DNA of 64,000 bases from Escherichia coli (GTDB lineage: Bacteria > Pseudomonadota > Gammaproteobacteria > Enterobacterales > Enterobacteriaceae): the NCBI RefSeq assembly GCF_002854065.1, contig NZ_CP024147.1. One strand, given 5' to 3'. Position 1 is the stretch's first letter, and every line of letters begins with the position of its first letter. Below are positions 7,973 through 17,451 of the stretch, in pieces. The notes beneath the pieces were generated by a model that worked only from the letters and a program-made list of their open reading frames with translations, was not told where the DNA came from and searched no databases. The position numbers and the translations under genes were made by a program.

Positions 7973-9262
7973 ATGTTACTGGCAGGAGCCATTTTTATCC
8001 TGACCATCGTGTTGGTTATCTGGCAGCCAAAGGGATTAGGCATTGGCTGGAGCGCCACGCTGGGTGCCGTACTGGCTCTGGCATCGGGTGTGATTCATAT
8101 CGCCGATATTCCGGTGGTGTGGAATATCGTCTGGAACGCCACGGCCACCTTTATTGCCGTCATTATCATCAGTCTGTTGCTGGATGAGTCCGGCTTTTTT
8201 GAATGGGCTGCACTGCACGTTTCCCGCTGGGGCAATGGGCGTGGACGTCTGCTATTTACCTATATTGTTCTGCTCGGCGCGGCGGTGGCGGCATTGTTTG
8301 CCAACGATGGCGCGGCGTTAATTCTGACGCCGATCGTTATCGCCATGCTACTGGCGCTGGGATTCAGTAAAAGCACCACGCTGGCTTTCGTGATGGCCGC
8401 AGGGTTTATTGCCGATACCGCCAGCTTGCCACTTATCGTATCGAACCTGGTCAATATCGTTTCGGCTGATTTCTTCAAACTGGGATTCACGGAGTATGCG
8501 TCAGTTATGGTGCCGGTGGATATTGCCGCCATTGTCGCCACGCTGGTGATGCTGCATCTTTTTTTCCGCAAAGATATCCCGCCCACTTATGAGCTGGCGC
8601 GACTGAAAGAACCCGCAAAAGCCATCAAAGATCCTGCGACGTTCAGAACCGGCTGGGTTGTGCTCCTCCTTCTGCTGGTCGGTTTTTTTGTCCTTGAGCC
8701 GATGGGGATCCCTGTGAGTGCGATTGCGGCAGTGGGGGCGGCAATCCTGTTTGCGGTGGCCAAAAAAGGTCATGGTATTAACACCGGTAAAGTGCTGCGC
8801 GGCGCGCCCTGGCAGATCGTGATCTTCTCACTGGGGATGTATCTGGTGGTATACGGGTTGCGTAACGCCGGTCTGACGGATTATCTCTCTGACGTGCTGA
8901 ACGTACTGGCAGATAAAGGACTGTGGGCCGCGACGCTGGGGACAGGATTCCTGACTGCATTCCTCTCTTCTATCATGAACAATATGCCGACCGTACTGGT
9001 TGGCGCACTGTCGATTGATGGCAGCACCGCGACCGGCGTTATCAAAGAAGCGATGATTTATGCCAACGTCATTGGCTGCGATCTGGGGCCGAAAATCACC
9101 CCTATTGGTAGCCTGGCGACACTGCTCTGGCTGCACGTGCTTTCACAGAAGAATATGACAATCTCGTGGGGATACTACTTCCGCACCGGGATTATCATGA
9201 CCCTGCCTGTGCTGTTTGTAACGCTGGCTGCGCTGGCGCTACGTCTCTCTGTCACTTTGTAA
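7973..9262 (+). CDS. arsB: Arsenite/antimonite efflux permease ArsB
   Basis: 429-aa polytopic membrane protein, C-terminus …[12 protein letters not shown] as in ArsB. Confidence 0.92.
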
Positions 9263-9734: not shown

Positions 9735-10271
9735 TCAGAGCATCATGCCTGAATCCGATGGTAACGTGCTGTTCCCTTCGCCCAGATTTCGTTGCAGCAA
9801 CACTGTGTCAAGCCAACGACCATGCTTGAAGCCAATATTTTTCAGCGTACCAATCTCAGTAAATCCAACCTGCTGATGGACTTTCAGCGAACCTTGATTA
9901 TTGCTATCGCCGACAATAGCAATCATCTGCCGATAGCCGTGAGTTTCTGCCCAGGCAATGACGTAGCGCAGCAACGCTTTTCCTGTCCCCTGACGCTGTG
10001 CGTCCGGGTGAATATAAATCGAATCTTCGAGAGTGTGGCGGTAGGCGTAGCGTTCACGGTAACGAGTGAGATAACAATACCCGATAACCTTTTCTTCCTC
10101 TAACGCGACAACCCACGGTAGCGCCTGATTGCGGATCTTTTTCAGGCGGGTAAGCATCTCGTGGGTATCCGGAGGTTCAGTTTCAAAGCTGGCGGTACCG
10201 TGAAGAACATGATGGGCGTAGATATCGCGTATAGCGGGGATGTGCTTTTCTTCTGCGTTAACGATTTTCAT
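9735..10271 (-). CDS. GNAT acetyltransferase of the phosphinothricin-acetyltransferase family (ArsN1-like arsinothricin N-acetyltransferase candidate)
   Basis: 178 aa; resembles E. coli MnaT/PAT proteins (…IYAHHVLHGTASFETEPP…YIHPDAQRQGTGKALL…); positioned in an ars island. Confidence 0.7.
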   Translation of the reverse strand: MKIVNAEEKHIPAIRDIYAHHVLHGTASFETEPPDTHEMLTRLKKIRNQALPWVVALEEEKVIGYCYLTRYRERYAYRHTLEDSIYIHPDAQRQGTGKALLRYVIAWAETHGYRQMIAIVGDSNNQGSLKVHQQVGFTEIGTLKNIGFKHGRWLDTVLLQRNLGEGNSTLPSDSGMML

Positions 10272-10483: not shown

Positions 10484-11308
10484 ATGTCCTCAGAATCAAA
10501 ACGGAACGGAAAAGGTTTTTTATCAGGCACGTTAATCGGTGCTTTAGGCGGCTTAATTGGCCTCGGTGGCGCTGAGTTCCGCCTTCCCGTCCTGATGGGT
10601 AGTTTCAAAATGCCGACGCTTGAAGCGGTTATTTTTAACAAAGCGATGAGCCTTACTGTTGTCGCTGTTGCTTTGATATTCCGCACAAAATCCATCGCCG
10701 TCGACCAGCTGTTTGCTCATCTTGATATTGTCATCAATTTGCTGGCCGGGAGCCTTATAGGTGCATGGTGGGCAGCAGGAAGAGCCATAAAAATGTCCCG
10801 TATTTGGCTGGACAGAACCATTCTGCTCCTGCTTGTTATCCTGTCATTCGTCATGTTTTCAGAAGCATTGATGCCTCTGCATGATAGCTCCGCTGGATTA
10901 TTCCAGCCCGGAATCGCGACCATTATTGCGGGTGTTATTGCGGGTGTTATTGCGGGTTTCTTCATCGGGAATGTTGCTGCTTTGCTGGGTGTTGCAGGGG
11001 GAGAGCTCCTGATACCAACTATCGTTATCCTTTTTGGGGCTGACATTAAACTGGCTGGCAGTTTGTCACTCATGATCAGTTTACCGACGATGATTGTGGG
11101 GTTCTCTCGCTACACTAATGCAGATGCTTTCCAGATCCTGAGAAAAGAGAAAAAACTTTTTGTGTGGATGGTCATCGGTTCCGTTATAGGTGCCGCTATT
11201 GGGGGCCTTATGCTCGGTATGTTCCCGGTAAGAGTACTTATGACTCTGTTAGGCGCGGTACTTCTTATTTCCGCGATCAAAACCTTTAAGCATACCCGGC
11301 AAAGATAA
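10484..11308 (+). CDS. TauE/SafE (TSUP/DUF81) family anion exporter-like membrane protein
   Basis: 274 aa, two glycine-rich hydrophobic halves (GALGGLIGLGGAEFRLP…; …GVAGGELLIPTIVILFG). Confidence 0.7.
   Translation: MSSESKRNGKGFLSGTLIGALGGLIGLGGAEFRLPVLMGSFKMPTLEAVIFNKAMSLTVVAVALIFRTKSIAVDQLFAHLDIVINLLAGSLIGAWWAAGRAIKMSRIWLDRTILLLLVILSFVMFSEALMPLHDSSAGLFQPGIATIIAGVIAGVIAGFFIGNVAALLGVAGGELLIPTIVILFGADIKLAGSLSLMISLPTMIVGFSRYTNADAFQILRKEKKLFVWMVIGSVIGAAIGGLMLGMFPVRVLMTLLGAVLLISAIKTFKHTRQR
10925..10960 (+). repeat. 12-bp tandem repeat ATTGCGGGTGTT x3 (last copy degenerate) inside the tauE-like gene, encoding (IAGV)2-IAGF
   Basis: Seen directly. Confidence 0.6.
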
Positions 11309-11812: not shown

Positions 11813-13570
11813 TTACTTCGCCATTTCTTCCAGCAGGTCAATACCAACCGGCTCTTCGCTCTGTAGCGCTGTTAATGCAATACGCTTTGCATACTGCTCT
11901 TCCACATCAGAGATGAGAGGCAGCTCGCGGTTAGCTCTGGTCTTCAGGAAAGGTGAAGACGGCTCAGCAGCTGCCAGGCTGTTATTCACAACCCATGCCC
12001 ACGGCTCAATGCCAGCCCGACGCAGATCCTGCTGCAGGTTAGCGGCTTCCAGTACAGGTGTCGTTTCGGCAAGCGTCACGATAATCACCTTCGTCTTCTC
12101 CGGGTCCTGCAATTGCATCATTGGCGTCATCACATGGTCATGTGTTTGCCCCATCTGGCGCACCATTTCCCGGTGATAGGCTCCAGTCGCATCCAGTAGC
12201 AGAAGTGTGTGACCCGTTGGCGCGGTGTCCATAATGACAAAATGATCGTCTGCCTCTTTGATTATCCGCGAGAATGCCTGGAAGACGGCGATCTCTTCAG
12301 TACATGGTGAGCGGAGATCTTCTTCCAGCACCGCCAGCCCCTCAGCGTCTAATCCTTTGCCCTGATTCTCCAGTACAAAACGGCGATAACGCTCTGTCTC
12401 CACCTTCGGATCGATACGGCTGACCTGCAGATTTGGCAGCGAGCCATCCAGCGTGTAAGACAGATGTGCTGCCGGATCGGACGTGGTCAGATGGACTTTA
12501 TGACCGCGTTTTGCCAGCGATACCGCGACCGATGCTGCAACAGTCGTTTTGCCCACGCCGCCTTTCCCCATCGTCATTACCAGCCCTTTGCCTGTCAGAC
12601 TGAGTTCATCCACTAACGAGGAAAGTTTCGGTAAATCCAGAGCATTTAGCGTTGTATTGGAGAGAGACAGTGGCGCTTTGCTCTCTGTTAATAACTCTCG
12701 CAGGGCTTCCAGACCGACCAGATTAAATGGCTTCAGAGACAGCTGCGAGCGGGGAAGATTAACCAGATTATCAGGCATTGCCTGTAATGCTTTTTCTTCC
12801 CGAGCCAGAATACTTTGCGCCAGTGGATCATTTTCACCGGCAAACGGTGGCAGCACACCATTAATGGCAAGGTGTTGATGCTGCAAACCAATAGCAGAAA
12901 GCTCATCGTGCGTATGAGAAACCTCTTTCAGCGTTGAAGCCTGAGCTCGGGCAACCAGCACTAAGCGTGTGAGAGCTGCGTCGGACAGCGCTTTAACCGC
13001 ATCGGAGTACTGGTGCTGTTGTTTCTCAAGCCCTACCAGAGGTCCAAGGTTTGCAGCGGCATCAGGGTTCGCTTCGAGATAACCGCTCCAGGCTCCCGGC
13101 AATTCAAGCATGCGGATGGTGTGACCGGTTGGCGCGGTATCAAATACGATATGGTCATATTTTCCCCGCAGCTCATGATTGGTCAGCAGACCAGTAAACT
13201 CATCAAACGCAGCGATTTCCGTGGTGCATGAGCCGGAAAGCTGCTCTTCAATGCTGCTGACCACATCGGCTGGCATCAGCCCGCGAACAGGGTCGAGCAC
13301 ACGGTCACGATAGGCTTGCGCTGCAGCCATCGGATCAACTTCCATCGCGGCAAGATTTTCTACAGTACTGATATCTGTGATTCGGTGGCCGATAGTCTGG
13401 CTAAATACCTGGCCGACATTGGAAGCCGGATCGGTACTCACCAGAAGCGTTCTCTTACCCTGATCGGCCAGCCATACTGCAGTAGCACAGGCCAGGGATG
13501 TCTTACCCACTCCACCTTTACCAGTGAAGAAGATGAACGGGGGAATGTCTTTTAAAAATGGCATATTCAT
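11813..13570 (-). CDS. arsA: Second arsenite-stimulated ATPase ArsA (divergent paralogue)
   Basis: Two GKGGVGKT / DTAPTGHT sets; start MNMPFLKD with RBS GAGGAG. Confidence 0.85.
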   Translation of the reverse strand: MNMPFLKDIPPFIFFTGKGGVGKTSLACATAVWLADQGKRTLLVSTDPASNVGQVFSQTIGHRITDISTVENLAAMEVDPMAAAQAYRDRVLDPVRGLMPADVVSSIEEQLSGSCTTEIAAFDEFTGLLTNHELRGKYDHIVFDTAPTGHTIRMLELPGAWSGYLEANPDAAANLGPLVGLEKQQHQYSDAVKALSDAALTRLVLVARAQASTLKEVSHTHDELSAIGLQHQHLAINGVLPPFAGENDPLAQSILAREEKALQAMPDNLVNLPRSQLSLKPFNLVGLEALRELLTESKAPLSLSNTTLNALDLPKLSSLVDELSLTGKGLVMTMGKGGVGKTTVAASVAVSLAKRGHKVHLTTSDPAAHLSYTLDGSLPNLQVSRIDPKVETERYRRFVLENQGKGLDAEGLAVLEEDLRSPCTEEIAVFQAFSRIIKEADDHFVIMDTAPTGHTLLLLDATGAYHREMVRQMGQTHDHVMTPMMQLQDPEKTKVIIVTLAETTPVLEAANLQQDLRRAGIEPWAWVVNNSLAAAEPSSPFLKTRANRELPLISDVEEQYAKRIALTALQSEEPVGIDLLEEMAK

Positions 13571-13590
13571 CAGTGATAGCTCCTCTGGAA

Positions 13591-13953
13591 TTAAGGCATA
13601 CGTGGAATGCTGCAGCAACGCGGTTGCGTACTGTCTTCACTCCAGTCCTGAGTTAGCGGAATATCTGCCCAACGGGCGATATCTTCACGAGTCGGCAGTT
13701 TGCCTGCCATCACCAGCTTGCCGTCGAGCAAGGTGACAGGGAGGGATTCCATCCCTGATGTGTTCATAAACTCTTTGATTACAGGGGTATTCAGGAACTG
13801 CTGCGGGTTTTTCGCAAGGCTGTAGCGCTGAATATCAACGCCATTCTTTTTCGCCCATTCGGCGCTGGCATTCCATTTGACGGCTTCGTCGCTCACCACA
13901 ACGCTGCTGGTTGCGCAGCAGCCTGCTGCTTCAAAGATCTCAATTTTTGACAT
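13591..13953 (-). CDS. arsD: ArsD-like metallochaperone (divergent; only the N-terminal CC pair conserved)
   Basis: 120 aa, MSKIEIFEAAGCCATS…, immediately upstream of arsA2. Confidence 0.7.
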   Translation of the reverse strand: MSKIEIFEAAGCCATSSVVVSDEAVKWNASAEWAKKNGVDIQRYSLAKNPQQFLNTPVIKEFMNTSGMESLPVTLLDGKLVMAGKLPTREDIARWADIPLTQDWSEDSTQPRCCSIPRMP

Positions 13954-14028
13954 GGATTGTTTACCTCAGTGTTTAGTCATTTGGCTTTACACTGAGGTAA
14001 ACGAAGGTGGTGGGAAAAAGATGCGCGA

Positions 14029-14574
14029 TTAATTCATTTTTTTGTGGCAGCAGACAAAAGATGTGTCATCCGCCTCAATCTGGCAGAGTTCTGTCATCGT
14101 CTCTTTCAGGTGTTTTCTGGCCCGAAGTAGTCGGGATTTAAACGCTGTAAGCGTGATTCCCCATTCATCGGCCAGGGACTGCTGGGGACGCCGGTTAAGG
14201 TCGGACTCTTCAATCAACCACCGCTCATCTTCGGGTAAAGCCTGTAATGTTTCAGGCAGGCAAATATCCAGTGTTGAGATTGCATCAAGGGATGCGTCTG
14301 TTAATAGGGCATCTTCTTCCAGCTCAACAAACGCCCTGGTGGTTCGGTACTCATCAATCAGCAGATTCCTTGCTACCCGATACAACCAGGCTCGCGGATT
14401 TTCCATCTCACAAAAAATGTCTGAATGGGCTCGGGCACGCAGGAAAAGGTCTTGCAGAAGGTCTGCTGCTTTTTCGCTATCGCCTGTCTTCGATATCAGA
14501 AAGCGAGAAAATTCGCCTTCATGCTGCCGCCAGAACACGCTCATACAGCTGTTGAATGCTGTTATGTCACTCAT
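14029..14574 (-). CDS. ECF (sigma-70 family, group IV) sigma factor with C-terminal Cys-containing tail (…ELCQIEADDTSFVCCHKKMN)
   Basis: Region 2 (…NPRAWLYRVARNLLIDEYR) and region 4 (…SLADEWGITLTAFKSRLLRARKHL) motifs; ATG 14574 with RBS GAAGG overlapping arsH stop codon. Confidence 0.75.
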   Translation of the reverse strand: MSDITAFNSCMSVFWRQHEGEFSRFLISKTGDSEKAADLLQDLFLRARAHSDIFCEMENPRAWLYRVARNLLIDEYRTTRAFVELEEDALLTDASLDAISTLDICLPETLQALPEDERWLIEESDLNRRPQQSLADEWGITLTAFKSRLLRARKHLKETMTELCQIEADDTSFVCCHKKMN

Positions 14575-14582
14575 ACTAACCT

Positions 14583-15293
14583 TCAAATTTTGCTCTGATT
14601 AACCCGTCGGGAAAGTTCTTCTGCAGACTCTTTTCGTTCACTGTAGCGATCGACAAGATAGGCAGAATTTGCCCGGGTCAACAATGTAAACTTCATCAAT
14701 TCTTCCATCACATCCACGATGCGGTCGTAATATGGTGACGGTTTCATACGTCCATCGTCATCAAACTCCTGCCAGGCTTTTGCTACCGAGGACTGGTTCG
14801 GAATAGTGATCATTCTCATCCAACGACCAAGCACGCGCATCTGGTTGACTGTGTTGAATGACTGGGAACCTCCACACACTTGCATAACAGCCAGAGTTTT
14901 TCCCTGAGAAGGACGAACAGCACCTTCAGATAATGGTATCCAGTCAATTTGTGCCTTCATAATACCAGTCATCGCTCCGTGTCGTTCCGGAGAGCACCAC
15001 ACCATTCCTTCAGACCAGCGGACCAGTTCACGCAACTCCATAACTTTTGGATGTGACTCCGGTGCATCATCAGGAAGTGGAAGGCCAGATGGATTAAAAA
15101 TGCGGACTTCTGCGCCCATCGCAGTTAACAACCGACCAGCTTCCTCTGTCGCCAGTCGACTGTATGAGCGCTCACGAACTGAGCCATAAAGCATTAGTAT
15201 ACGAGGGGGGTGAGATATTGTCGGTATCCCCATTTTTTGCTCAGTTATTGCAGCATCAAATAAATCAGGAACTATATTATTTAGCTTATTCAT
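14583..15293 (-). CDS. arsH: ArsH, NADPH-dependent FMN reductase (organoarsenical oxidase)
   Basis: 236 aa; …[18 protein letters not shown]… flavodoxin-like motif typical of ArsH. Confidence 0.85.
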
Positions 15294-15391
15294 TTTTTAT
15301 TTTCCCTATAGATTCGGGATCTTAGTAGGATGGATTCAGACGGTTCGATGCAGCTTTCGTCAATCATGACAGTTATGAGTTTTTCGGTTAC

Positions 15392-15715
15392 TTATCCATT
15401 TTTGCCAGCGGGTTCCGTAACATCTGTTTTACTGTTTACACAGCACTCTTCACGTAAGAATTCGATGATAGCTTCCAGTATTTCGTATTGAGAGACGCAC
15501 ATGAGCGTTCGACTCTCCCGGTTTTGTGTGACGAGTCCTACTGATACTAAGGCTGAAATATGATGACTTAACGTTGATGAGGGAATGCCAAGCTGCTTTT
15601 GCAATTCACCTACAGGCAAACCTTGTTCTCCAGCTTTTACAAGATGTTTGAATATGAACAAACGGGTCGGGTGACCCAGCTCTTTTAGTGCTTTAGCTAC
15701 TTCTTCCAATTGCAT
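15392..15715 (-). CDS. arsR: ArsR/SmtB family repressor, C-terminal vicinal-Cys type (…REECCVNSK…)
   Basis: 107 aa; HTH …LPVGELQKQLGIPSSTLSHHISALVSVGLV…; lacks the CVC site of R773 ArsR. Confidence 0.8.
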   Translation of the reverse strand: MQLEEVAKALKELGHPTRLFIFKHLVKAGEQGLPVGELQKQLGIPSSTLSHHISALVSVGLVTQNRESRTLMCVSQYEILEAIIEFLREECCVNSKTDVTEPAGKNG

Positions 15716-15735
15716 GTGACAACCCTCTGTCTAAT

Positions 15736-15798
15736 GATATTTCGATAATACCAGAAATATCTTGACCAGAATTATATTTCGATTATTCTAGAAATGTA
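15736..15798. promoter_or_regulatory. Two tandem imperfect palindromic operator-like sites (GATATTTCGATAATACCAGAAATATC at 15736-15761 and TATATTTCGATTATTCTAGAAATGTA at 15773-15798) in the arsR2/arsP divergent intergenic region
   Basis: Seen directly; candidate ArsR2 binding sites. Confidence 0.45.
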
Positions 15799-15820
15799 GA
15801 TTTTGTCAAGAGGGTTTAGT

Positions 15821-16954
15821 ATGAATAGTTGGATTTCTATGCTGCAAGATGCCGCAGAGATGTTTTTGTTTTTGGCCGTCGAGCTATCTTTGCTGTTTAT
15901 TGTCATCAGTGCCGGTGTGAGCCTGATAAGGCAAAAGGTCCCGGACCATAAAATCCAGCAATTGTTGGGGGCGAAAAAAGGAAAAGGCTACCTGCTGGCC
16001 TCGTTGTTGGGAGCCGTTACCCCTTTCTGTAGTTGCTCAACAATTCCAATGCTACGAGGGTTGTTGTCGGCGAAAGCAGGGTTTGGTCCGACACTCACTT
16101 TTTTGTTTGTTTCACCGTTGCTTAATCCCATTATCGTGGGGTTAATGTGGGTTACCTTTGGCTGGAAAGTAACTTTGTTGTACGCGATCATCGCTGCCGG
16201 TGTCTCAGTCCTTGCCAGTATCGTATTGGATTTACTAGGATTTGAACGTCATATTGTTGATCACAAAAACTCAGCATCAAGTGGTTGCGCCACCAAATGT
16301 GATGATTCCGAAGCTTCGGTAAAAACGTCGGCGGGTTCCAGTTGTTGCAGCACTAGCTCGACTCAATTGCCTGTAAAAACGAGTTGCTGTACTTCATCAG
16401 CGAACCCCATAATTAACTTAAGGACGGTAAAGAACGAGCAGAACGTATCAACGTGTTGTTCATCAATATCATCTGAACAACCAGCTGTTAGCTGTTGCAG
16501 CAGCGAGAATCTGGGCAATGTGAATCTCACACCGAATACCACCTCTGGCCCAATAAAGTTAGCTATGAAAGATGCCTTACAGCAGTTTAAGGATGTTCTG
16601 CCTTATCTTTTGTTAGGTGTATTAATAGGTTCATTTATTTATGGCTTTATCCCTTCAGAGTGGATTGCAGCTCATGCCGGAGCAGATAATCCCTTAGCCA
16701 TACCGCTGAGTGCAGTTGTTGGTATTCCGTTGTATATACGCGCAGAGGCAGTGATACCACTTGCATCAGTGCTGATGACTAAAGGAATGGGCCTGGGGGC
16801 ATTAATGGCCTTGATAATCGGTAGTGCTGGAGCGAGTTTGACAGAAGTAATACTGCTTAAATCAATGTTCAGAATGCCTATGATAGTCGCTTTTCTGACA
16901 GTTATCTTAGGTATGGCAATTCTAATGGGTTATCTGACTCAATTCTTGTTTTAA
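15821..16954 (+). CDS. arsP: ArsP-type organoarsenical efflux permease with Cys/Ser-rich loop
   Basis: TPFCSCS motif recalled for ArsP; start ATG 15821 after RBS GAGGG; central loop has four CC pairs. Confidence 0.8.
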   Translation: MNSWISMLQDAAEMFLFLAVELSLLFIVISAGVSLIRQKVPDHKIQQLLGAKKGKGYLLASLLGAVTPFCSCSTIPMLRGLLSAKAGFGPTLTFLFVSPLLNPIIVGLMWVTFGWKVTLLYAIIAAGVSVLASIVLDLLGFERHIVDHKNSASSGCATKCDDSEASVKTSAGSSCCSTSSTQLPVKTSCCTSSANPIINLRTVKNEQNVSTCCSSISSEQPAVSCCSSENLGNVNLTPNTTSGPIKLAMKDALQQFKDVLPYLLLGVLIGSFIYGFIPSEWIAAHAGADNPLAIPLSAVVGIPLYIRAEAVIPLASVLMTKGMGLGALMALIIGSAGASLTEVILLKSMFRMPMIVAFLTVILGMAILMGYLTQFLF

Positions 16955-16997: not shown

Positions 16998-17451
16998 CAG
17001 TTTCACTAGCAGATTGCCAGTTCTAGTAGCCAATTAAGAGAGGAGTGGATTGTTCTTTGGGTATTCGCAAACCCAGCAACGGTAAAATCAGGACTGACCC
17101 AAAAATTCAACGAGAATCCACCCCTTTAAATCTTTGATCCCTTCCCGGAAGCAGTATACGGCATATCTGAGTTAATCGTTTCTATTGGAGCTTCAGGGAA
17201 GCGACTCTTAATAGAAATCTGTTAATACTGTCCAAAACTGATTCCCTTTATCCCGAGCTGAACCGTAACAAAACCATCTCTCTTTGAGATCTCACATACT
17301 CAACGAACATAAGCCATTGCTGCTACATACAATTTTACGAAGCATATCACCTTAGTTGATCATGAAATCCATCCTGAATACAGATTGATTTTTATACTAT
17401 ATTAAGTGAGATATGATCTTCTTTAGAGTTGAGCTAAAAGGAGTCGAGGCG

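Follow-up and report, generated by a model that had tools for sequence, protein, structure and literature searches.

Introduction

Extracytoplasmic function (ECF) sigma factors that carry their own cysteine sensor and have no anti-sigma factor are a known kind. CorE and CorE2 of Myxococcus xanthus, which control metal-resistance genes, are switched directly by metal via the cysteines of a C-terminal extension (PMC8999054, PMC7826278). These two (formerly ECF44) have been merged with SigZ (formerly ECF24) into the group ECF238, whose traits are a cysteine-bearing C-terminal extension of ~20 amino acids (aa) and the absence of anti-sigma factors; CorE2 is switched on by Cd/Zn via this extension (PMC7826278, PMC8999054), and CorE-type sigma factors have a cysteine-rich domain (PMC8999054). 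SigZ of Bacillus subtilis, now ECF238 subgroup 9, has a short C-terminal extension with cysteines, no anti-sigma factor and no known function (PMC7826278). An excerpt of PMC9023288 describes OrbS of Burkholderia cenocepacia as another ECF sigma factor with its own cysteine-rich C-terminal extension as sensor. Here we analyzed a 64-kb stretch of the chromosome of Escherichia coli strain CUWW06, from wastewater (contig NZ_CP024147.1; hereafter the window), in which a SigZ-like ECF sigma factor gene lies inside an arsenic-resistance (ars) island. This sigma gene and a candidate promoter adjoining it point to a second, so far undescribed tier of control for genes of arsenic resistance.

In the canonical system, ArsR and ArsD detect trivalent arsenicals through thiols and govern the same resistance genes, and an ArsR heads the cluster studied here too. 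The canonical components are, however, a repressor and a chaperone acting at a sigma-70 promoter, whereas here a dedicated sigma factor with its own type of promoter would act downstream of ArsR. Reviews and surveys of ars genes (PMC6205960, PMC4435449, PMC3954881) mention no sigma factor, and full-text searches of a limited library, pairing sigma or ECF with ars terms or using arsE/arsF, returned no sigma factor described as a regulator of ars operons. The main text of the ECF classification paper does not mention arsenic, and two papers name the gene in the sigma position only as a 'sig70-like sigma factor' or a 'hypothetical protein'. An ars-dedicated clade of sigma factors with a five-plus-two cysteine signature therefore appears to be undescribed, as do its promoter motif and its placement at the end of ArsR-headed operons, from which it would drive the next transcription unit.

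Results

An ECF sigma factor gene between arsH and arsD2

An initial reading made from the letters alone (the sequence-only reading) had proposed a 181-aa ECF sigma factor between arsH and arsD2, its start codon preceded by a ribosome-binding site that overlaps the arsH stop codon, with no anti-sigma gene alongside. All of this held. Pfam places Sigma70_r2 at residues 16–80 (E 3e-10) and Sigma70_r4_2 at residues 105–156 (E 2.7e-8), and finds no region 3, region 1.1 or other domain in the 181 residues. The protein is thus an ECF (group 4) sigma-70 factor, which we defined as having sigma2 and sigma4 only, without region 3 or 1.1, and a length of ~170–220 aa. It also passes the NCBIfam model TIGR02937 (sigma70-ECF; 60.5 bits against a cut-off of 42.9), and RefSeq names the identical open reading frame (ORF) 'sigma-70 family RNA polymerase sigma factor' (WP_032288330.1). 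The arsH stop codon (TGA, 14585–14583) is followed by AGGTTAGT and then by the sigma ATG (whole junction, TGAAGGTTAGTATG), and an AAGG ribosome-binding site lies across or beside the stop, 5 nt ahead of the ATG; from this spacing we infer that arsH and sigma are translationally coupled. The genes on either side encode ArsH and an ArsD-family protein, and no anti-sigma gene adjoins the sigma gene in the window. Run against four orthologues, dN/dS was 0.12–0.18 where measurable (0.16, 0.12 and 0.18 for versions whose proteins are 95%, 90% and 77% identical), so the sigma protein is under purifying selection.

The best NCBIfam match of the protein is SigZ (TIGR02959; E 1.9e-38), aligned over residues 15–179 and therefore including the tail. 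Its scores lie below both equivalog cut-offs (132 bits against 168.65 for TIGR02959, and 115.9 bits against 212 for NF007215); the sigma is SigZ-like but not SigZ. The SigZ match, together with shared features, suggests that it belongs to the SigZ/CorE-type kind and is ECF238-like. As in ECF238 (Casas-Pastor et al. 2021), an extension follows region 4.2: 22 residues (160–181) with C164, C175 and C176, ending in ...ELCQIEADDTSFVCCHKKMN. The sequence-only reading had rightly noted a short cysteine-bearing tail, although its version stopped two residues early. Also as in ECF238, we found no anti-sigma gene, either beside the sigma gene in the window or among the named recurrent neighbors in 80 related loci (see below), which are ars genes, an ArsP-family permease and an ArsE-type gene; this screen did not cover every small unidentified ORF.

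The likeness to CorE has limits. CorE-type sigma factors have a CxC in the linker and a longer cysteine-rich domain, which the ars sigma lacks: its linker (residues 80–100, RAFVELEEDALLTDASLDAIS) is free of cysteine, the nearest being C105 at the start of sigma4, and its tail has 22 residues and 3 Cys, against ~38 aa and ~6 Cys in the cysteine-rich C-terminal domain of CorE. The most conserved cysteines of the ars sigma lie instead inside sigma2 and sigma4, its presumed signal is a metalloid and its gene sits within ars operons. OrbS, as the excerpt of PMC9023288 presents it, differs further in belonging to another ECF group, responding to iron and governing the ornibactin regulon, and we set it beside the ars sigma by description rather than by sequence. 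The closest solved chains are all ECF sigma factors (best, Mycobacterium tuberculosis SigL, 6dv9), and no solved ECF chain aligns beyond profile position ~158.

Association of the sigma clade with ars genes

A library-wide search returned relatives of the sigma at 30–56% identity. From a scan of one genome per species we took 80 sigma loci (35–47% identity, mostly Beta/Gammaproteobacteria) and annotated them within a 5-kb radius of the sigma gene, using BLASTP and seed proteins drawn from the window and one of the loci, L004. A core ars gene lay within this radius in 65/80 loci, an ArsP-family permease in 48/80 and a Thioredoxin_3 gene in 55/80, the latter two usually just 3' of sigma and on the same strand; several downstream genes missed by the seeds belong to the other ArsP subtype. 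ArsD genes were found in only 12/80. The typical layout is arsR-arsC-acr3-(arsD-arsA)-sigma-permease-thioredoxin-like gene on one strand, with the sigma gene usually ending an ArsR-headed operon, and the sigma-permease-thioredoxin-like order is shared by the independent loci L004–L007. The thioredoxin-like neighbor belongs to the MTH895/ArsE family (TIGR00412, 84.7 bits). ArsE has been described as an organoarsenical-resistance protein (bioRxiv 10.1101/2022.10.17.512643), and an excerpt of PMC9144182 cites Chen, Zhang and Rosen 2019 for a role of ArsE in organoarsenical resistance. Judged by the company that its genes keep in these distant orthologous loci, the sigma clade is genuinely dedicated to ars genes.

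The arsR-arsH-sigma-arsD-arsA block of the window, with at least 80% of the query covered, is present in 1175 plasmid records (mainly Klebsiella, Escherichia, Salmonella and Citrobacter), and at least 80% of it in only 24 of 5426 complete E. coli genomes. Several variants turned up alongside these loci. One metagenomic contig (L006; 2166–2852 and 8001–8577) carries two paralogous sigma-promoter-permease-thioredoxin-like modules in a single ars cluster. In at least three different in-frame deletions (P0073, P0064, P0056) the sigma is cut after residue 38, 62 or 135 and its N-terminal part runs on into the C-terminal end of ArsA; one such fusion is annotated 'arsenical pump-driving ATPase' in Yersinia enterocolitica. 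The SigZ-like sequences P0187, P0152 and P0137, which fall outside the clade, come from contigs of 1–3.4 kb that are too short to show an ars context, and exact-sequence searches with P0041 and P0048 gave no match.

A candidate promoter after the sigma gene

We searched 35 spacers between the sigma gene and the permease gene de novo for bipartite words. GCATC-16-CGTC occurred in 19/35, against at most 3 in shuffles, and with one mismatch allowed it was present in 29/35, always with a spacer of 16 nt. The consensus, TGCATCCTTTT-N-TTCGTCTTC (GCATC-N16-CGTC), has the usual ECF geometry and a CGTC –10 element and is a candidate ECF-type bipartite promoter. From the 29 instances, all in other loci and hence independent of the window, we built a 35-nt position-weight matrix and scanned the 80 loci with it at a threshold of at least 18 bits. 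The scan gave 83 hits, of which 78 are on the same strand as the sigma gene; five block-shuffles gave 0. In 51/80 loci a hit falls within 300 nt 3' of the sigma stop codon, and 22 of them come from the 51 loci that had not supplied training instances. None of the hits lies upstream of any sigma gene in the 80 loci; those associated with a sigma gene are all downstream, unlike in the canonical autoregulated module of an ECF sigma and its anti-sigma factor. We also considered autoregulation by this motif directly and rejected it: a motif search of the 250 nt ahead of the sigma genes turned up nothing beyond weak patterns (top, 12/77, against at most 6 in shuffles), which look compositional or coding.

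The sequence-only reading had called for a motif search upstream of the island genes, and this search yielded a single site in the window, before arsD2 (13994–14028, Table 1). No other place in the 64 kb matches GCATC-N16-CGTY, and on both strands this site, at 20.5 bits, is alone in reaching 12 bits with the matrix. It begins 1 nt past the sigma stop codon, and its –10 element ends 46 nt ahead of the arsD2 ATG. No other hit of at least 12 bits occurs in the 64 kb, including before arsP, arsR2, arsH, the first arsRDABC operon and the GNAT, TauE and ModE-like genes (the TauE/SafE gene of the island lies at 10484–11308). Because the sole hit lies between the sigma stop codon and arsD2, the sigma most likely drives arsD2-arsA2 from this candidate promoter. 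For the same reason arsR2-arsH-sigma-arsD2-arsA2, earlier taken to be one operon, is probably not one simple operon.

The enteric relatives of the window block, all outside the training set, carry the motif at corresponding places. In a Citrobacter plasmid (L001) and in Photorhabdus (L008) it stands exactly where it does in the window, in Cedecea (L088) it lies between the sigma gene and arsD, and in L002/L003 it stays before arsD though an unrelated gene intervenes after sigma. Citrobacter amalonaticus (L089), with the order arsR-arsH-sigma-acr3-arsD-arsA, carries the motif twice, ahead of acr3 and ahead of arsD (8547–8581 and 9856–9890). The layout of the window resembles this arrangement minus acr3, which leaves arsA2 without an adjacent pump gene. 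The –10 region varies by lineage, being CGTTTAC in the enteric versions and CGTCTTC in others. Extra strong hits occur in L013 (17613, 19465, 20197), L015 (6046, 8150) and L084 (14779, 20020, 20099), where they precede genes for a TauE/SafE-like membrane protein and an OsmC-like protein as well as unnamed genes; the regulon may be wider in these species.

For E. coli carrying a pKPN3-like plasmid, in the absence of arsenic, the published RNA-seq values in reads per kilobase per million (RPKM) are 21 for arsR, 39 for arsH, 47 for a 'hypothetical protein', 9 for arsD and 4 and 4 for arsA (PMC6286996 Table 1). We equated this hypothetical protein with the sigma by position only; with that reading, the drop in RPKM fits a transcript boundary after the sigma gene.

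Conserved cysteines of the sigma

The sequence-only reading had taken the vicinal cysteine pair of the tail as the key feature of the protein. Across 81 ars-linked orthologues, however, the pair is less conserved (C175 in 48/81, C176 in 43/81) than five other cysteines, C10, C55, C105, C124 and C164, each of which is present in 79–81 of the 81. Lack of conservation of the tail cysteines had been named in advance as evidence against a sensing role, and it is seen in part: the C175-C176 pair occurs in ~55% of orthologues, and C164, where the tail starts, occurs in 81/81. Of the other four, C10 and C55 (just before the NPRAWL segment) lie in sigma2 and C105 and C124 in sigma4. The sigma of the window itself has C10, C55, C105, C164, C175 and C176, with Ser at position 124, a substitution shared among the 81 orthologues only by Photorhabdus (L008). 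Versions without the vicinal pair (V[STA]D[FH]VPR) come mostly from Comamonadaceae and other Burkholderiales, which suggests that the pair was lost in one or a few lineages. A common allele in Klebsiella (P0021, 361 member sequences; N-terminus MSFRTKHSPKKPGRFKQHE...) lacks C10 and retains the remainder, including the CC tail.

The signature separates the clade from its wider surroundings. The wider SigZ-like set retains only C105 and C164, the latter as part of CC at 163–164, plus distal cysteines in a C..C arrangement, whereas the ars-linked clade has a single C164, FC at 54–55, C10, C124 and often VCC at 174–176. There is no CxxC motif in the sigma protein. In a structure model the domains are confident (mean pLDDT 87) and their placement is not (pTM 0.49), with the tail at a pLDDT of ~44–52.

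An inverted repeat in the sigma-arsD2 spacer

A perfect 13-bp inverted repeat (TTTACCTCAGTGT / ACACTGAGGTAAA) begins inside the –10 element of the candidate promoter. Read as RNA, CCUC just after the –10 pairs with the Shine-Dalgarno sequence GAGG of arsD2, and the hairpin has a free energy of –22.4 kcal/mol (z –5.25; 0/200 shuffles as stable). In the window, L001, L088, L002 and both spacers of L089, TTTACyTC just after the –10 is complementary to the GAGGtAAA Shine-Dalgarno/start region of the downstream gene. In L001, L088 and L002 the sequence differs but the arms still pair; the acr3-arsD spacer of L089 shows a compensatory change from CAGTG/CACTG to CAATG/CATTG, and in its sigma-acr3 spacer the same TTTACTTC is paired, over ~85 nt, with the Shine-Dalgarno sequence of acr3. 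A transcript begun ~7 nt past CGTT would lack most of the left arm and, by computation, leave the ribosome-binding site free (–4.6 kcal/mol). The hairpin might thereby cause read-through mRNA to be poorly translated and sigma-initiated mRNA to be well translated; the repeat could equally be a protein operator instead. An Rfam scan of 13500–16000 returned only a plant microRNA hairpin on the opposite strand, below threshold (30.1 bits against a gathering score of 62), a match that reflects the inverted repeat and no known bacterial RNA family.

Neighboring genes and the ars island

The features of the second ars cluster are collected in Table 1. The candidate promoter of arsR2-arsH-sigma lies in the divergent spacer between arsR2 and arsP, amid repeated ATCGAAATAT sequences that may be the ArsR2 operator. 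The cysteines of ArsR2 are C-terminal (one more lies in LMCVSQ), unlike the N-terminal CVC-type site of R773/E. coli ArsR; we take this layout to resemble that of the Acidithiobacillus-type and the methylarsenite-selective Shewanella-type ArsR. Together with the presence of arsH and arsP, it suggests that the second cluster targets organoarsenicals. ArsD2, which is 40% identical to ArsD1, retains C12-C13 and lacks Cys18 owing to a 2-residue deletion; a two-thiol site of this kind would suit methylarsenite better than arsenite. The long Cys/Ser-rich loop between the two membrane halves of the ArsP-family permease has four vicinal CC pairs (SSCCSTS, TSCCTSS, STCCSSI, VSCCSSE), and NCBIfam links this permease only distantly to the SO_0444 Cu/Zn and SaoE efflux proteins. 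No Thioredoxin_3 gene was found within the window, where the seed matches only ArsD, weakly.

The island is chromosomal and lies beside the native arsC/gad-mdtEF region, where it seems to have taken the place of most of the arsRBC locus native to E. coli. Past the island (17413–22271 and 24404–24853, both on the + strand) lie a site-specific integrase gene and several hypothetical genes, and farther on dinQ, the native arsC and IS1.

Table 1. Genes and candidate regulatory elements of the second ars cluster in the window.
Feature	Position	Strand	Description
ECF sigma gene, 181 aa (181 codons + stop)	14029..14574	-	ATG at 14574; between arsH and the arsD-family gene
Candidate sigma-read promoter	13994..14028	-	–35 GCATC 14024–14020, 16-nt spacer, –10 CGTT 14003–14000
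Perfect 13-bp inverted repeat	13960..14001 (arms 14001–13989 / 13972–13960)	-	Begins inside the –10 element
Candidate sigma-70-type promoter for arsR2-arsH-sigma	15782..15809	-	TTGACA-16-AATAAT; consensus scan, 11/12 matches; putative function
arsR2, ArsR/SmtB repressor	15392..15715	-	NCBIfam NF033788, 63.2 bits (cut-off 55); C-terminal vicinal pair EECCVNS
arsH	14583..15293	-	NCBIfam TIGR02690, 403.6 bits (cut-off 292)
arsD2, ArsD-family	13591..13953	-	NCBIfam, 84.4 bits, just below equivalog cut-off (90); proposed first gene of the sigma-dependent transcript
arsA2, arsenical pump-driving ATPase	11813..13570	-	TIGR04291, 944 bits (cut-off 650); RefSeq start 13570; proposed second gene of the sigma-dependent transcript
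ArsP-family permease (Pfam ArsP_1)	15821..16954	+	Divergent from arsR2; TPFCSCS motif; Cys/Ser-rich loop

Discussion

We propose that a functional SigZ/CorE-type (ECF238-like) ECF sigma factor forms a second regulatory tier inside the ars island, in two steps that we consider, taken together, reasonably probable. As the layout suggests, arsR2-arsH-sigma would first be read from the sigma-70-type promoter in the arsR2/arsP spacer under the control of ArsR2, such that the sigma would be made only once trivalent arsenicals release the repressor. RNA polymerase carrying the sigma would then start at GCATC-N16-CGTT after the sigma stop codon and transcribe arsD2-arsA2, a step for which the comparative evidence is strong. 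In most other bacteria of the set the equivalent promoter would serve an ArsP-family permease and an ArsE-type protein, and in Citrobacter amalonaticus the two copies would serve acr3 and arsD-arsA.

A third step is more tentative. The conserved cysteines (C10 and C55 in sigma2, C105 and position 124 in sigma4, C164 and often C175-C176) may gate the sigma post-translationally, either as ligands of a trivalent arsenical or as reporters of thiol status; we offer this as a working idea that is somewhat more apt to be wrong than right. The analogues are CorE and CorE2, switched by Cu or Cd/Zn without an anti-sigma factor, and an on-board thiol sensor, as the sequence-only reading envisaged, has precedent in the family because ECF238 and CorE2 sense metal via the C-terminal extension (PMC7826278, PMC8999054). 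Direct sensing of arsenicals by the sigma is plausible by this analogy. That the clade would be the first sigma factor to sense a metalloid directly, with trivalent arsenic binding the conserved cysteines and turning the sigma on, is a rather doubtful extension. Judging by the vicinal pair, with its two thiols, and by the company of arsP, arsE and arsH, the species sensed would possibly be methylarsenite or an aromatic arsenical.

Several observations weigh against this scheme. The promoter role of the motif is argued from its geometry, from how it is oriented and where it lies, and from its regular company with the sigma gene. The window site scores below the lowest training instance (22.1 bits), and its –10 element is CGTT, not CGTC; its –35 element lacks the 'AAC' common in ECF promoters. 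A bare GCATC-N16-CGTY is expected ~1.2 times per window by chance, and it is the extended match and the position that carry the argument. Our scan of the window found no intrinsic terminator in the sigma-arsD2 spacer, and transcripts reading through from the arsR2 promoter may thus express arsD2-arsA2 as well. The 3' end of sigma, arsD and most of arsA are commonly lost through independent deletions, which implies that the module is dispensable in some hosts. As for gating by cysteines, the vicinal pair is absent in ~45% of orthologues, the window lineage lacks C124, and the model does not reliably place the domains and the tail.

The strongest alternative to cysteine gating is a plain relay, in which the sigma is active once made and senses nothing. 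ArsR2 alone would set its level, the sigma would add delay, amplification or insulation to the expression of arsD2-arsA2 (or of arsP-arsE elsewhere), and the cysteines would hold a structural metal such as Zn or steady the fold. Since the sigma gene usually ends an ArsR-headed operon, arsenic-dependent synthesis already explains induction, and the five invariant cysteines are spread across both globular domains rather than concentrated in the tail, whose pair can be lost. However, ECF sigma factors without post-translational control are uncommon, and 6–7 free thiols in an arsenite-loaded cytoplasm would, by arsenic-thiol chemistry, probably be affected by arsenite. The family that the sigma resembles, moreover, uses its cysteines for signal input (PMC7826278, PMC8999054), as does OrbS according to the excerpt of PMC9023288. 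We regard a relay of this kind as possible, if on the unlikely side.

The cysteines might alternatively make the sigma a thiol-redox sensor, forming or breaking disulfides upon the thiol depletion or oxidative stress brought about by arsenicals, so that the signal would be the redox state and not bound arsenic. The thioredoxin-like protein that is its usual downstream partner is in keeping with this, as are the extra motif hits before the OsmC-like gene in L015 and the response of CorE to the redox state of copper (PMC8999054). Yet the sigma has no CxxC motif and its association is specific to ars genes, not to general oxidative-stress genes, and we think such a sensor improbable.

We find it quite improbable that the bipartite element is no promoter of this sigma at all and is instead the site of another regulator (for example, of the ArsR type) or an RNA element, the real targets lying elsewhere. 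The promoter is known here as a candidate from the sequence; its –35 part is atypical of ECF promoters, and in enteric bacteria the element overlaps the strong inverted repeat, which could be an operator. But ArsR operators are typically palindromic, whereas this element lacks symmetry: its spacer is fixed at 16 nt and its –10 reads CGTC, the usual ECF geometry. It also points toward the downstream gene in 78/83 cases, ending some tens of nt before the gene start, and co-occurs with the sigma clade across very different gene contexts.

Control of the sigma through ArsD2 had been raised in the sequence-only reading; ArsD2 would either hand over As(III) or act as an anti-sigma factor. The gene for ArsD2 comes next after sigma, ArsD proteins are As(III) chaperones that work through thiols, and ArsD2 is atypical in lacking Cys18. 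The low frequency of arsD near sigma genes (12/80 loci) makes such control unlikely as a general scheme, most species pairing the sigma with arsP-arsE and no ArsD; in the window, moreover, the candidate sigma-dependent promoter lies upstream of arsD2, which casts this gene as a target, not a controller. We consider this explanation very unlikely. We think it most improbable that the sigma gene is a passenger in decay that no longer has a function in the island: truncated and fused versions are frequent in databases, the window lineage has lost the otherwise invariant C124 and few complete E. coli genomes carry the block, but the full-length reading frame is intact, dN/dS is low across versions of 77–95% identity, and the adjacent motif is kept in the enteric versions L001, L008, L088, L089 and L002/L003.

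Arsenic resistance is a textbook case of control by a metal-sensing repressor (ArsR, with ArsD), to which a dedicated sigma factor and promoter type would add a layer. The clade is also kept in environmental Beta/Gammaproteobacteria beside the organoarsenical-resistance genes arsP and arsE. The predicted targets for experiment are compact, namely a promoter of 35 bp and a protein of 181 aa with six cysteines. Should the sigma bind arsenicals, metalloids would join the signals read by the few sigma factors that have built-in sensors (CorE/CorE2, OrbS), and an orthogonal sigma/promoter pair would be on offer for arsenic biosensors. If direct sensing is true, the two tiers would form a two-key gate, in which release of ArsR makes the sigma and binding of the arsenical activates it, set over organoarsenical efflux genes in many Proteobacteria and over arsD-arsA on widespread enterobacterial resistance plasmids.

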